Below the pieces are notes generated by a model, which worked only from the letters and a program-made list of their open reading frames with translations, had not been told where the DNA came from and ran no database searches. A stretch of 64,000 bases of DNA from Promethearchaeota archaeon (GTDB taxonomy: Archaea > Asgardarchaeota > Lokiarchaeia > Sigyniarchaeales > SOKP01), in assembly GCA_019894975.1 (NCBI GenBank), contig JAGXNO010000003.1:64001-128000 (forward strand), given 5' to 3'. Below are positions 14,275 through 34,643 of this stretch, piece by piece. Both the position numbers and the translations under genes were made by a program. Each line of letters opens with the position of its first letter. The stretch's first letter is position 1.

Positions 14275-14508
14275 ATGAAACCTCCTATATGTAGAGTATG
14301 TAATAAAGAGTTAGAGGAAAAAGAAGATGGTGGATTAATCTATTTTAAAAAACGCCAATCTGATATAAAGTGGGAAAAAAGAATGGAAGAAATTGGAGGT
14401 GTTGGACATCCACCCTATGCGGAATGGTTCTGTAAAAGGCATTTTAAGAAGGCAAATGAGCTAAAACATTTACCTATTGATAAAGCTTTAGAGCAGTTAT
14501 TGCTTTAA
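14275..14508 (+). CDS. Small putative zinc-binding protein
   Basis: CRVC ... GHPP ... WFCKRH. Confidence 0.55.
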   Translation: MKPPICRVCNKELEEKEDGGLIYFKKRQSDIKWEKRMEEIGGVGHPPYAEWFCKRHFKKANELKHLPIDKALEQLLL

Positions 14509-14931
14509 AGGGCCTAATTCCTTTATTTGATTCGTAAATTCAGTGATTACTTCTGAAAATCTCTTACCTTCAGATGCACTTACCCATTCTAATCGCACTC
14601 GTTTAGGATCTACTCCTAATTGTTTAATTAAAATGTTATGCAGTCTTTCGAATCTCTCTTGTGTATACTCATTCCCTGTTATATAGTGACAATCACCTAT
14701 ATGACAACCGCTTACAAGAATGCCATCAGCACCGTTCTTGAGGGCTTTTAAAACAAATGAAGGATCTACTCTTCCTGAGCACATTACCCTTATAATTCTG
14801 ATATTAGGAGGATACTGAAATCGAGATACGCCCGCTAAATCTGCTCCCGCATAACTGCACCAATTGCAACAGAAAACCAATAGTTTTGGTTCAAATCCTT
14901 CTTTTTTTACACTATTTTTTGATTTTGACAT
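14497..14931 (-). CDS. mvhD: MvhD [2Fe-2S] subunit (Cys form)
   Basis: FCCNWCSYAGAD, RVMCSGRVD, GCHIGDCHY and WVSASEG motifs; ATG 14931 follows a GGTGA SD. Confidence 0.95.
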   Translation of the reverse strand: MSKSKNSVKKEGFEPKLLVFCCNWCSYAGADLAGVSRFQYPPNIRIIRVMCSGRVDPSFVLKALKNGADGILVSGCHIGDCHYITGNEYTQERFERLHNILIKQLGVDPKRVRLEWVSASEGKRFSEVITEFTNQIKELGPLKQ

Positions 14932-14940
14932 GAATATCAC

Positions 14941-24703: not shown

Positions 24704-25135
24704 TTATTTTAGTTTTAAAGGTCCTTGTTCTTTTATTTGATTTGTAAATTCTGTAATTACCTCTGAAAATCTCTTCCCTTCAGAGGCACTAACCCATTCA
24801 AGTCTAAACCTTTTTTTAAGATTAAATATTTTTAAAACATCCTGAAAACGTTCAAATCTATCTCGTGCAAACTCGTTACCTTTTAAGTAGTGACAATCTC
24901 CAATATGACACCCAGTTACAATAACTCCATCAATGCCATCTTTAAATGCTTCTAAAATGAAGGCAGGATCTACTCTCCCAGAGCACATTACCCGTACTAT
25001 CCTAATTGTAGCAGGGTATTGAAATCGTGAGACTCCCGCCAAATCTGCTCCCGCATAACTGCACCAATTGCAACAAAAACATAAAATTTTTGGGTGAAAT
25101 TCCTTTTGACTTACTTTTTTTTTTGACTTAGACAT
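24704..25135 (-). CDS. mvhD: MvhD [2Fe-2S] subunit (Cys form)
   Basis: FCCNWCSYAGAD, CSGRVD and GCHIGDCHY motifs. Confidence 0.95.
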   Translation of the reverse strand: MSKSKKKVSQKEFHPKILCFCCNWCSYAGADLAGVSRFQYPATIRIVRVMCSGRVDPAFILEAFKDGIDGVIVTGCHIGDCHYLKGNEFARDRFERFQDVLKIFNLKKRFRLEWVSASEGKRFSEVITEFTNQIKEQGPLKLK

Positions 25136-30605: not shown

Positions 30606-32114
30606 TTACTCTTTCTGTAAAATAATTGGTTTACAATTTTTTCTCTTAATACCAGCAATCCTTTCGAGTAAGGGTTGTCCTGGTTTGACATCTTTCAAAC
30701 TTTTTGATTCAATTAATCCTGCTTTAACTGCTTCTTTATAGATTTTTTCACCTTTTTTATTTCTTGTAATGACTGAAGACCACCCGCTGGGAGATCCAAT
30801 TGATCCAACAGAAATATCAGCATAATCAGCAGTTAGGTCTTCACAATAATGACAATTGTGACGAGCGTAGGATTTAACATCGTTCAAGGGAACGTTTAGA
30901 TCTTCACCTGAATCTAGATAAATAATGAATTTACCCCCACTTATGTCCATTTTTGTTACTTTTTGAAAATCTGTTTCAAATTGTTCTTTAATTAAGCTTA
31001 GGACGCCTTCATAAGGAAATGATTCCATACAAAAGAGCCCTATTCTATATTTTATATTTTTGAAAAAAGGTAACCCGCTTGGAAATAAGCTACCCTTTTC
31101 CAAGGCGTTCATCATACAAGGAACACCTACAACTGCGATGTTATCAAACTTTTTTGTACCATCTATAATACTTAAAGTTGAGGCATTAGCGTATTTAGTA
31201 CCACTTGTTTTATATAAATCCTTGACATCTTCTATTATTACTGGTTCTGGCTTCCATAGTTCTTCTGAATGTTTTACTGCTACAATTGCATCAACTAATT
31301 TATTCTCGAGTAAATACTCAAGTAGAGATGTAACGATACCCCCATCTTGTCGTACTTTTTTAATATCATCCTTGGTGGTGCTGGCTGAATATGCGTTAAC
31401 ATAGCCATTAATATTTTCTGAAAACTTCAAGGATTTCTCAATTTTGCTTATACTTTTACCCGCTTGCTCAATTGAAAATGATCTTGGGCAAACAGAATAA
31501 CATAAGCCACATTTCATGCATGTCGCATCGTCGATCTCCAAAGTGTCTGCTGTCACTGTAATGGCATTTACTGGACAAATTGATGAGCACCAACCACATT
31601 GACAACATACTTCAGAATCAAACACAATGGAAACAGGTTCAAAAAACCGTTCGATAAAACCATCAGGTAGATCTTTAACCTGGTATCGGTAGAAATATTC
31701 TTTTTCTTCGACTTCTTTTTCTTCTCCCTTTATTTTCTTAATAACAGTTTTAGTTTTTATTTCAATATGTTCTTCTATATATCCTTGTTCTTTCAGATAA
31801 ATTACATCGCGAATTACATTTTCAGGAGGAAAATCTTTTATAATTTTAGCAATTTCTTCTAAAAATAACGGTTCTTTACCTTTTAAAGATTCTAAAACTA
31901 ACTTACGCTCTGTTTCAGCATCGATCATAGCATCTAGGAATTCATAAAATTCTTCTTCAGAATATTTACCAGTTTCTAAAATTTCACCTTTAGCTTCGAA
32001 AAAAGCCCTAATCTGAAAATTCTCGACTGCTTTATAGGTGGCATCCATTAAATTTCTTGGAGAGATTCCATTGAAATTTAGATTTTTTGAGATTTGAACC
32101 ATATTTCCAACCAT
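30606..32114 (-). CDS. FrhB/FdhB-family subunit with N-terminal extension and ferredoxin
   Basis: CCQCGWCSSICP, CMKCGLCYSVCP, QDGGIVT, SGTKY, VGVPC, GLFCME, CHYCED, ADISVG; start may be 32102. Confidence 0.87.
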   Translation of the reverse strand: MVGNMVQISKNLNFNGISPRNLMDATYKAVENFQIRAFFEAKGEILETGKYSEEEFYEFLDAMIDAETERKLVLESLKGKEPLFLEEIAKIIKDFPPENVIRDVIYLKEQGYIEEHIEIKTKTVIKKIKGEEKEVEEKEYFYRYQVKDLPDGFIERFFEPVSIVFDSEVCCQCGWCSSICPVNAITVTADTLEIDDATCMKCGLCYSVCPRSFSIEQAGKSISKIEKSLKFSENINGYVNAYSASTTKDDIKKVRQDGGIVTSLLEYLLENKLVDAIVAVKHSEELWKPEPVIIEDVKDLYKTSGTKYANASTLSIIDGTKKFDNIAVVGVPCMMNALEKGSLFPSGLPFFKNIKYRIGLFCMESFPYEGVLSLIKEQFETDFQKVTKMDISGGKFIIYLDSGEDLNVPLNDVKSYARHNCHYCEDLTADYADISVGSIGSPSGWSSVITRNKKGEKIYKEAVKAGLIESKSLKDVKPGQPLLERIAGIKRKNCKPIILQKE

Positions 32115-32166
32115 TTGGATTAAAATTTATTAAAAAACTTATACTTAAATTGAATACTATTTTAAA

Positions 32167-32234
32167 ACCCCTTCCCTCGCAAGGTAAGTCATCTTATAAC
32201 TAACATTTTTTTATAAGATTCATTCTGCAGGGGT
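32167..32234 (-). promoter_or_regulatory. Eukaryote-type SECIS element (selenocysteine insertion hairpin)
   Basis: RNA ACCCCUGCAGA-AUGAA-UCUUAUAA-AAAAAUGUUAG-UUAUAAGA-UGAC-UUACCUUGCGAGGGAAGGGGU. It has an AUGA/GA core, a perfect 8-bp upper stem, an A-rich apical loop and a lower CCCUGCAG/UUGCGAGGG helix, and lies directly 3' of two TGA-interrupted genes. Confidence 0.8.
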
Positions 32235-32693
32235 AATTATAACTTGTTTTGTTTCTTCAGTTTCCACTTCTGAATCATGATCTATTAAATTAAGCGGACT
32301 TGGTCCGAAGGTTTTTACCTTTTCTATAGTATCTTCCACACTTTTTACAAATTTTTCTGCTTCTGCTCCACTTAACCAATACATATTAACCCTTTGATTA
32401 CCGAAACCCCGAGATTCTAAAATCCTGTTTGCTAATTCAACATGTCTTTGAGCCGTGAAATTGCCGTTCTTAAACTGGCATTCATTAGGGCGTCAACCTA
32501 CAATCATGACACCATCCGCTCCAGATTTCATACTGTAAAGTATGTGTTTCAAATCTACTCTCCCTGTACAACGCACTTTAATAATTTTTATAGATGAAGA
32601 ATATTTCAGTCGAGAAACTCCTGCTAGATCAGCAGCACTGTAACCTCATTTTAAACATGCAAATGCAACAATCTTATAATTATAATTATTCAT
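32220..32693 (-). CDS. mvhD: Selenocysteine-containing MvhD/VhuD (157 aa; U16, U67); absent from the ORF track
   Basis: Manual translation MNNYNYKIVAFACLK-U-GYSAADLAGVSR...RCTGRVD...GADGVMIVG-U-RPNECQF...WLSGAEAEKF. TGA at 32646-32648 and 32493-32495 align to Cys of the Cys paralogues (CNWC, GCH). Confidence 0.92.
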
Positions 32694-32696
32694 TGT

Positions 32697-34643
32697 TTAA
32701 TCCCCTCCTAACAGTCCATCAATCTCAGCAAATAATTGATGATCTCGATAATATCTTATATCAATGGCCTGAGTAGGACAGCAAGTTGCACAAATACCGC
32801 ATCCATCACAATTTATCTCATCAATATATGCTCCAATTTCTTCATCAATCTTAATAGCGTTTTTAGGGCATTCCTTTTCACATCGTCTGCAGGAAATGCA
32901 AAATTCGCTATCAACTTCAGCAGTAATTAATTCAATATCAATTTCTCCTGGAGATGTTAGTTCAGCAACTTTACTAGCAGCAGCTCTAGATTGTGAAACG
33001 GAATAAGCAATATTTTTTGGCCCTTGAGCAAATCCAGCTATAAAAATGCCTTTTGACTTAGTCTCTTGCGGCATTAATCCGAAATGTGATTCTGTAAGAA
33101 AGCCGTATTTGTTAGTATCAAGCTTTAAAACGTCTACGATTTGTTGAGTGCCTTTTGAAGGAAGTGCTGCCGTGGATAAGACAACTAAATCAGCATCAAT
33201 TTTGACAATCTTATCAGTTAATGATGAATATAATCGAACTTTCACGTTTTTAGTTTCAGGATCTTCTGAGATTTCACCAACTTTTCCCCGAATCATCCTA
33301 ATACCTTTATCTTTCGCACGTTCATAATACTCCTCAAAACCTTTTTCTGGAGTCCTTATATCGATATAACAAATTGTAATCCTCGCATCAGGAAATTCTT
33401 CTAGAAGCAATCTCCCATTCTTTAGAGCAAGCATACAACAGACACCACTACAATAGGTTCTTTCTGTTTCTCTACTGCCCACACATTGAATGAACACAAT
33501 TTCCTTAGGTTCCTTATTATCTGAAATTCGATGCACATGACCTTCAAGTGGTCCATTTGGAGCTAACATCCGTTCTAATTGAACCTGGGTTATCACATTT
33601 TCAATCTCTCCATAACCATATTCACCAAAAGGTTCATGTATATCCCAACCAGTTGCAATTATGACTGTACCCACTTCAACATTAACTTCCACTGGCTCCT
33701 GACTAAAATCAATTGCATCCAATTCGCACGCATCAACGCATGAAAAGCATTCTACACAAGCTTCTCTATCAATATCATATAAAAATGGGACTGCTTGACC
33801 GAATGGAATGTCTATTGCTCTTCGTGCTCCCAGATTTTCATCAAAATAATTTTGCGTGTAAACAGGACAAACTTCAGCACAGGCCCCACACCCATTACAT
33901 TCATCTGTCGTATATCGTGGTTTCTTTACAATTGTTGCGATATAATTACCAACATATCCTTCGATCTTTTTTACTTCACAATAGCTCATTAATTCGATGT
34001 TTTCGTTTCTATTAACTTCTAACATTTTAGGCCCGCAAATTCATATTGCACAGTCATCTGTAGGAAAAGTTCTATCCAATTGAGCCATCCTTCCTCCTAT
34101 TGTAGTCTTTTGTTCTACAAGATAAACTTTGATACCTTGATTGGCGAGATCTAAAGCCGCATTCATACCACCAATCCCTCCTCCAACTACTAAAGTAGCT
34201 TTAGTAACAGGGACTGTTTTAATAGGGACGGGCTCTAATCGTTTAACTCGTTCAACACCGCCTTTTACCAATTGTTTAGCTTTTTGTGTAGCTTCTTCTT
34301 TGCTATCTGTACACCAAGAACAATGTTCTCGAACGTTTACCATTTGAAAATAATAAGGGTTTAAATCTGTTTTAGCAATTGTACCCCTATAAATTACTTC
34401 GTGCGTTCGGGGAGTTCAAGCTGATGCTACGATTCTGTTTAGATTTTTTTCTTTGATATCTTCAATTATTTCATTTTGGGCATTGTCGGTTCAAAGAAAT
34501 GCATTCTTTTTTGATATTATAATTTCTTCAGGAAATTCGTTTTTAACATACTCTACTAGCTCATCACAATTAACTTTACTTTTTATATTTATACCTCACT
34601 GACATGCATAGTATCCAATCCGATGATTTGTATTTTTATTCAT
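32697..34643 (-). CDS. hdrA: Selenocysteine-containing HdrA (648 aa; U16, U51, U76, U201); split into fragments in the ORF track
   Basis: One frame from ATG 34643 to TAA 32697, with TGA at 34596-98 (CQUG), 34491-93 (FLUT), 34416-18 (ASAUTPRTHE) and 34041-43 (DDCAIUICGPKM). Each matches a conserved Cys in the three Cys-type HdrA paralogues. Confidence 0.92.

Follow-up and report, generated by a model that had tools for sequence, protein, structure and literature searches.

A Loki-type SECIS element at the end of an archaeal hdrA-vhuD gene pair, in which the UGA of the core is also the vhuD stop codon

The hdrA-vhuD pair and the hairpin at its end

The window, by which we mean the whole stretch of 64,000 nucleotides of Promethearchaeota DNA that was analysed, carries two selenoprotein genes in tandem on its minus strand. 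The first, hdrA (32697 to 34643), has 648 codons and a UAA stop; translated with TGA as selenocysteine (Sec, U), it contains four in-frame Sec UGAs, at codons 16, 51, 76, and 201 (34598-34596, 34493-34491, 34418-34416, and 34043-34041), and its product combines Fer4 and FAD/pyridine-nucleotide oxidoreductase domains (Pfam). After a spacer of three bases, on the same strand, follows vhuD, or mvhD (32220 to 32693; 157 codons and a UGA stop at 32222-32220), with Sec UGAs at codons 16 (32648-32646) and 67 (32495-32493). Its product of 157 amino acids belongs to the FlpD/MvhD family (PF02662; Pfam E value, 2.1e-44), and U16 and U67 align with invariant cysteines of both Cys-type MvhD paralogues encoded in the window. 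Both Sec codons are kept in every orthologue that covers them, at a constant spacing of 51 codons where both are covered; a FlpD domain with two selenocysteines at conserved cysteine positions about 50 codons apart identifies the gene as vhuD. Genes for tRNA-Sec and SepSecS are both present in this genome. Standard gene callers split hdrA and vhuD at this locus, and it is in annotation that the practical value of recognizing the arrangement lies.

The Sec-type pair sits in a minus-strand cluster that spans window positions 14497 to 34643 and also includes two Cys-type mvhD genes (14497 to 14940 and 24704 to 25135), large HdrA-like genes, an HdrD-like CCG-domain gene, and two FrhB-family genes.

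The hairpin at the end of vhuD (32167 to 32234, minus strand) is a complete lokiSECIS, the Asgard counterpart of a type I eukaryotic SECIS element, as judged from its sequence, its fold, covariation across 42 loci, and a covariance model, R1, described below. Read along the minus strand, its parts follow one another in the order ACCCCU-GCAG-A-AUGA-AUCUUAUAA-AAAAAUGUUAG-UUAUAAGAU-GA-C...UUGC...AGGGGU. The lower helix (helix I) has as its 5' arm ACCCCU (32229 to 32234), which is at the same time the Thr and Pro codons 154 and 155 of vhuD and pairs with 32172-32167, the 3' arm AGGGGU (32167 to 32172) that is assigned by covariation. The core AUGA (32220 to 32223) contains the UGA (32222-32220) that is the in-frame vhuD stop, codon 158. 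Above it stands the upper stem (helix II), with a 5' arm AUCUUAUAA (32211 to 32219) whose last three bases form an in-frame UAA (32213-32211), an apical loop AAAAAUGUUAG of 11 nt (32200 to 32210) with five leading A residues and a terminal AG, and a 3' arm UUAUAAGAU (32191 to 32199) placed by motif match and covariation. The GA that completes the tandem G.A core (32190-32189) and the invariant C after it (together 32188 to 32190) close the motif, whose core reads GAAUGA/GAC.

The initial annotation had placed the hairpin, the core UGA at codon 158, and the downstream UAA correctly, and its reading of the 5' arm of the lower helix as coding sequence holds, since the last vhuD codons, ACC CCU GCA GAA (TPAE), form that arm. 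The upper stem that it gave as 8 bp becomes 9 bp, all nine of them paired, when the flanking A-U pair is counted.

Some further features of the copy in the window may be recorded here. Between 32189 and 32223 on the minus strand it has stops in all three frames, namely, the core UGA, a UAG at the end of the loop, and a UGA made up of the last stem base and the 3' GA; this third-frame UGA is not conserved, some orthologues having A or G before the GA. A UUUU run (32167-32164, minus strand) stands directly 3' of the lower helix, and a U-tract is kept there in most orthologues (GGGGUUUUU; alignment columns 76 to 80). The next gene, frhB-like (32114-30606), begins about 50 nt beyond the U-tract.

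Conservation, covariation, and likeness to known elements

The folding energy of the hairpin is unremarkable (z = -1.0; 34 of 200 shuffled sequences were equally stable), and thermodynamic significance is uninformative for a hairpin so rich in A and U. The motif itself is rare. A perfect AUGA-9-11-9-GA match occurs once in the window, at the 32234-32167 element, and the strict pattern has 10 matches in the 3.9-Mb genome where 0.9 would be expected from Markov shuffles.

We retrieved 42 related vhuD loci from other Asgard genomes, 41 of which reach the 3' end of the gene, and the resulting alignment has 42 rows with the window included. The element is found at the same place in all 41 orthologous loci that reach the 3' end, although these orthologues are related and the counts of loci are not counts of independent events. 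In one of them, L021, the orthologous SECIS lies at the expected place with one A.A mismatch; a hairpin farther downstream in that locus, considered as a candidate SECIS, was spurious. The GAAUGA sequence is invariant (42/42), as is the C that follows the 3' GA, the latter being GA in 38 loci and AA in 4. The loop is 11 nt long in 39 loci, 10 nt in two, and 12 nt in one, with three consecutive A residues within the leading A run and the terminal G invariant in all 42.

The paired regions, by comparison, vary in a compensated manner. In the three-helix structure 90.2% of the alignment cells form standard pairs, against 47 to 53% when the partners are slid, with double-sided changes in 10 pairs and a covariation score that was reached by none of 500 shuffles. 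The nine pairs of the upper stem are paired in 95% of cells and show double-sided changes in four pairs; the lower helix is paired in 90% of cells, with compensated changes from CG to UA (6 cells), CG to AU (6 cells), and UA to CG (9 cells). Among these are synonymous changes at the third positions of the last Thr and Pro codons of vhuD (ACC to ACU and CCU to CCC), matched on the 3' arm by G to A and A to G (6 and 9 cells, respectively), which argues that these two codons are under selection at the level of RNA. RNAalifold independently recovered the upper stem and the outer lower helix. The middle helix (columns 14 to 17 with 61 to 64) is paired in only 80% of cells and has an alternative register; it and a putative kink-turn C stem (columns 15 to 17 with 55 to 57) are each partly supported.

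The covariance model R1, built from the orthologue alignment, has a single match in the window, the 32167-32234 element itself (104 bits; E value, 9e-23). The eukaryotic Rfam model SECIS_1 had no match, either in the whole window at the gathering score or within 32100-32300 at E <= 10, where the weak matches to snoZ5, mir-208, snoJ33, and the glycine-GGAnGA family are chance. The lack of a match to the eukaryotic model agrees with the two papers on Asgard archaea, in which SECISearch3 and tools for eukaryotic SECIS elements likewise found nothing (PMC4989117, PMC11227280). No better SECIS turned up elsewhere in the window to replace the hairpin.

The published description of lokiSECIS elements calls for an AUGA, a 9-bp stem, an 11-nt loop whose first five positions are A-rich and whose last G is preceded by A, and a GA (PMC4989117), and the looser model of Huang et al. 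2024 allows a stem of 7 to 15 bp and a loop of 8 to 20 nt (PMC11227280). The element in the window agrees with both: AUGA stands just 5' of a 9-bp stem, the 11-nt loop starts A-rich and ends in AG, GA follows on the 3' side, and the structure is conserved with compensatory changes. The initial annotation's identification of a eukaryote-like SECIS of Loki type is borne out by this exact geometry and by the retention of the element, with covariation, in the orthologues. The element overlaps the end of a UGA-containing selenoprotein gene and is the single element of its hdrA-vhuD pair; motif and covariance-model searches found no SECIS between hdrA and vhuD. In all these respects the locus resembles the HdrA-VhuD tandems already described from Loki genomes (PMC4989117), with the same gene pair in the same order, a very short spacer, four Sec in HdrA and two in VhuD, one element after vhuD with the same AUGA, stem, loop, and GA, and a vhuD that may end in UGA. 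Loki HdrA always ends in UAA or UAG (PMC4989117), and hdrA here, with its four in-frame UGAs and UAA end, is as Mariotti et al. predicted. Nothing at the locus differs in kind from those tandems; it is another genome's copy.

With type I eukaryotic SECIS elements the hairpin shares the AUGA...GA quartet that forms the tandem G.A core, the adenines of an A-rich apical loop, two helices, placement after the coding sequence, a minimal spacing between UGA and SECIS, and, presumably, action at a distance. It differs from them in an upper stem of only 9 bp, in overlapping the coding sequence, and, presumably, in serving two cistrons. No SBP2 is known in Asgard archaea (PMC4989117, PMC11227280). The core also resembles the kink-turns bound by proteins of the L7Ae family, having what would be a closing G-C pair, a 3-nt AAU bulge, tandem G.A/A.G pairs, and a longer stem. 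The invariant G32225 could pair with the invariant C32188, leaving AAU as a bulge before GA/GA, and the next pair of the putative C stem (columns 16 and 56) is standard in 31 of 42 loci. This likeness is one of sequence, all core residues being invariant and hence beyond covariation. For connecting selenocysteine decoding in archaea with that in eukaryotes, the SECIS elements of Asgard archaea offer the best link available.

The U-tract behind helix I may represent an oligo-U terminator of archaeal type, in which case the mRNA would end immediately after the SECIS. Another reading would make the whole structure, stem plus U-tract, a stability or termination hairpin at the mRNA 3' end, leaving Sec insertion to depend on something else. 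The UUUU directly after the lower helix, which is fairly well conserved, and the missing Rfam SECIS match speak for it, but an invariant AUGA/GA core, a fixed 9+11+9 geometry, and an A-rich loop are not features of terminators. Moreover, elsewhere in the genome the motif recurs, with other helix sequences, behind selenoprotein genes and behind little else, and R1 finds no other candidate in the window. We hold this reading to be extremely unlikely.

The core UGA as a stop codon

The sharing of a triplet between a stop codon and a SECIS core has precedents. In the VhuU.1 lokiSECIS the AUGA supplies the UGA stop of the gene (Mariotti et al. 2016, Mol Biol Evol, PMC4989117), so that the core UGA doubles as the stop in both cases, the published worked example being vhuU and the present one vhuD. 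Overlap between a UGA stop and the AUGA motif is frequent in Lokiarchaeial selenoprotein genes (Huang et al. 2024, ISME J, PMC11227280). Many Loki selenoprotein genes end in UGA, and it was proposed that closeness to the SECIS would preclude recoding there, by analogy with the minimal spacing in eukaryotes (PMC4989117), which is given as roughly 50 to 110 nt between UGA and SECIS (Martin 1996, as cited in PMC4989117).

Among the vhuD relatives most loci have the overlap, but some do without it. With the window included, 35 of the 42 loci have the core UGA as their first in-frame stop. The seven others end earlier with their SECIS intact, at a UAA 16 nt upstream (L033, L035, and L041), a UAA 17 nt upstream (L034), or a UAG 5 nt upstream (L038 to L040), and they fall in at least three places on a maximum-likelihood tree, corresponding to about three or four changes of state. 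The overlap looks ancestral in the vhuD orthogroup and appears to have been lost repeatedly. The sequence that encodes TPxE is conserved in the seven early-stop loci although it is out of frame or untranslated there, so that its conservation is attributable to the RNA.

The initial annotation had further described the UAA three codons after the core UGA as a back-up stop. Its position is as given, and an in-frame UAA lies 9 nt beyond the core UGA in 33 of the 35 overlap loci; its role as a selected back-up finds no support. The triplet forms the top of the upper stem and persists in all seven loci whose stop precedes it. In L008 it has been lost together with a compensating change in the stem, and the next stop comes only at +66 nt; in L030 it is replaced by UGA, and the next stop is a UAG at +21. 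To judge from the aligned sequences, the +9 UAA is stem sequence. In L008 and L030, which have no nearby further stop, the core UGA itself must terminate translation.

The stretch of vhuD that leads into the element has its own pattern. Compared with the Cys paralogues, the Sec-type VhuD carries about 22 additional residues as a tail; this tail is acidic and poorly conserved, and its sequence varies among orthologues, which fits a reading frame that simply runs on to the first stop. The distance from the second Sec UGA to the SECIS core is 238 to 273 nt, mostly 258 to 264 nt, in all 41 loci that cover that UGA, those with a fully translated tail and those in which an early stop shortens it alike. 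A constraint on spacing could account for this, but so could common descent by itself; conceivably, if improbably, the nonconserved vhuD tail serves as a spacer that always keeps the second Sec UGA at that distance.

These observations most probably mean that the hairpin, of Loki type, is the only SECIS that a bicistronic hdrA-vhuD unit possesses, that its core UGA is a stop by proximity, and that the overlap is tolerated and not a required device. On this model, the folded element would present a kink-turn-like core, G[AAU]GA...GAC, beneath the 9-bp stem and A-rich loop, and would most likely recruit the Sec elongation factor with Sec-tRNA. Through such recruitment the six in-frame UGAs upstream of the hairpin, four in hdrA and two in vhuD, which lie 273 nt to about 2.4 kb away, would be decoded as selenocysteine. 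The reading frame of vhuD would cross its acidic, poorly conserved tail, enter the 5' arm of the SECIS, and end at the first in-frame stop it meets, the core UGA. A ribosome with codon 158 in its A site should already have unwound the lower helix and would cover the upper stem; with no folded SECIS left at that moment, the release factor would win and the UGA would terminate. That a ribosome must unfold the SECIS on arriving at the core UGA, as the initial annotation proposed, is a supported inference and the same as that published by Mariotti et al. 2016 (PMC4989117). Termination at codon 158 would be an instance of the minimal-distance rule known for eukaryotic SECIS elements and proposed for Loki by those authors, a rule compatible with the UGAs that this genome reads as Sec, the nearest of which lie 114 nt or more from a core. 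The overlap would be the tolerated result of a very compact gene end, inherited within the vhuD orthogroup and lost several times. On the proximity model, whether a UGA is a stop or selenocysteine is set by its closeness to the SECIS and not by the identity of the triplet.

Two other readings give the shared triplet a function of its own. The initial annotation saw in it a built-in device for discriminating stop from Sec; such a device would be selected because a stop inside the SECIS core guarantees that this UGA is never recoded. The majority state of the overlap, its apparent antiquity, the invariance of GAAUGA, and the dependence of L008 and L030 on the core UGA as the only nearby stop speak for such a device. 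They are outweighed by the loci that have moved their stop to a UAA or UAG 5 to 17 nt upstream, in at least three lineages, while keeping the SECIS, and by the other eight SECIS elements that R1 finds in this genome, none of which uses the core UGA as a stop. The AUGA is equally invariant where it is not a stop, so the RNA explains its conservation; any stop within or adjoining the SECIS would be protected equally, and UAA and UAG need no protection. We consider a selected device of this kind unlikely. The overlap is optional among relatives and inherited within the orthogroup. Since it is the majority state and looks ancestral, some selective benefit is possible, whether as a fail-safe against recoding or through termination coupled to melting of the SECIS, which would tune the six upstream UGAs to ribosome traffic; that selection keeps the overlap for such a reason seems to us improbable.

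Alternatively, the core UGA might at least sometimes be read as Sec, so that the protein would end ...TPAE-U-I-L at the UAA with a selenocysteine near its C terminus. The frequency of an in-frame UAA 9 nt on would suit this, but that UAA is just as well conserved where it lies beyond the stop and is dispensed with in L008 and L030, and the two codons in between belong to the stem and covary with its 3' arm. A ribosome at this UGA would, moreover, have unfolded the SECIS, and eukaryotic elements need a spacing of roughly 50 to 110 nt. This reading is accordingly very unlikely, and we prefer termination by proximity to both.

Publications of 2016 and 2024 already contain the element, its overlap with a stop codon, and the explanation that such a stop stands too near to be recoded (PMC4989117, PMC11227280), and the case is known in kind. 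What is added here is a census of the overlap within one vhuD orthogroup (35 of 42 loci, with at least three losses), the compensated synonymous changes, and the recognition of the +9 UAA as stem sequence. How a Sec UGA is told from a stop UGA is a real question, and the locus cleanly illustrates the published answer, namely, that distance from the SECIS decides. The gain is in quantitative detail, an overlap that is common but dispensable and a supposed back-up UAA that is structural, and no new question is opened.

Other lokiSECIS sites in the genome

The eight further sites found by R1 have lower-helix sequences that differ yet still pair. Wherever the gene upstream of a site is legible, it contains UGA codons. 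At least five of the sites stand behind genes, or parts of genes, for known selenoproteins: an hdrA with two Sec, an hdrA fragment at a contig end, a vhuD paralogue with two Sec, and two peroxiredoxin-like (PrxL) genes with UxxU and UxxC motifs; another follows a protein with a UGA-UGA tandem. Six of the eight lie 5 to 27 nt after a UAA, one lies about 229 nt behind the contig-end hdrA fragment, and one has no clear cargo gene. The element in the window is the only one of nine whose core UGA is a stop.

One of these sites, at C109:36086-36171 (plus strand; L044), lies about 28 kb before the window, 14 nt after the UAA of the two-Sec hdrA, apparently with no intervening vhuD. This hdrA with a SECIS of its own departs from the rule of one SECIS after vhuD.

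At C98:164913-164996 (plus strand; L043:3014-3097) there is a strong lokiSECIS (57 bits; E value, 1.6e-9) with no recognizable selenoprotein gene upstream. The sole candidate for its cargo is a 105-aa open reading frame (ORF) with one transmembrane segment and one UGA (CDIF-U), which would cross the AUGA in another frame and end at the UAG with which the apical loop closes; neither a Pfam family nor homologues were found for it. A SECIS-like element with a longer apical region, of type II-like appearance, lies at C33:26162-26251 (plus strand; L047:3063-3152; 38.6 bits). It begins about 16 nt beyond the end of a 297-aa ORF that has no Pfam family and whose sole UGA is codon 5, and its cargo is uncertain.

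The lokiSECIS behind the UGA-UGA tandem, on C87 with its AUGA at 80151 (minus strand; L048:213-695, minus strand), stands 10 nt after the UAA of a 161-aa ORF that contains HAD-U-U-AD. No Pfam family matches this ORF, and the homologues in the database either are truncated at the UGAs, at 118 aa, or have WW in their place; the sequence beyond the UGAs is conserved.
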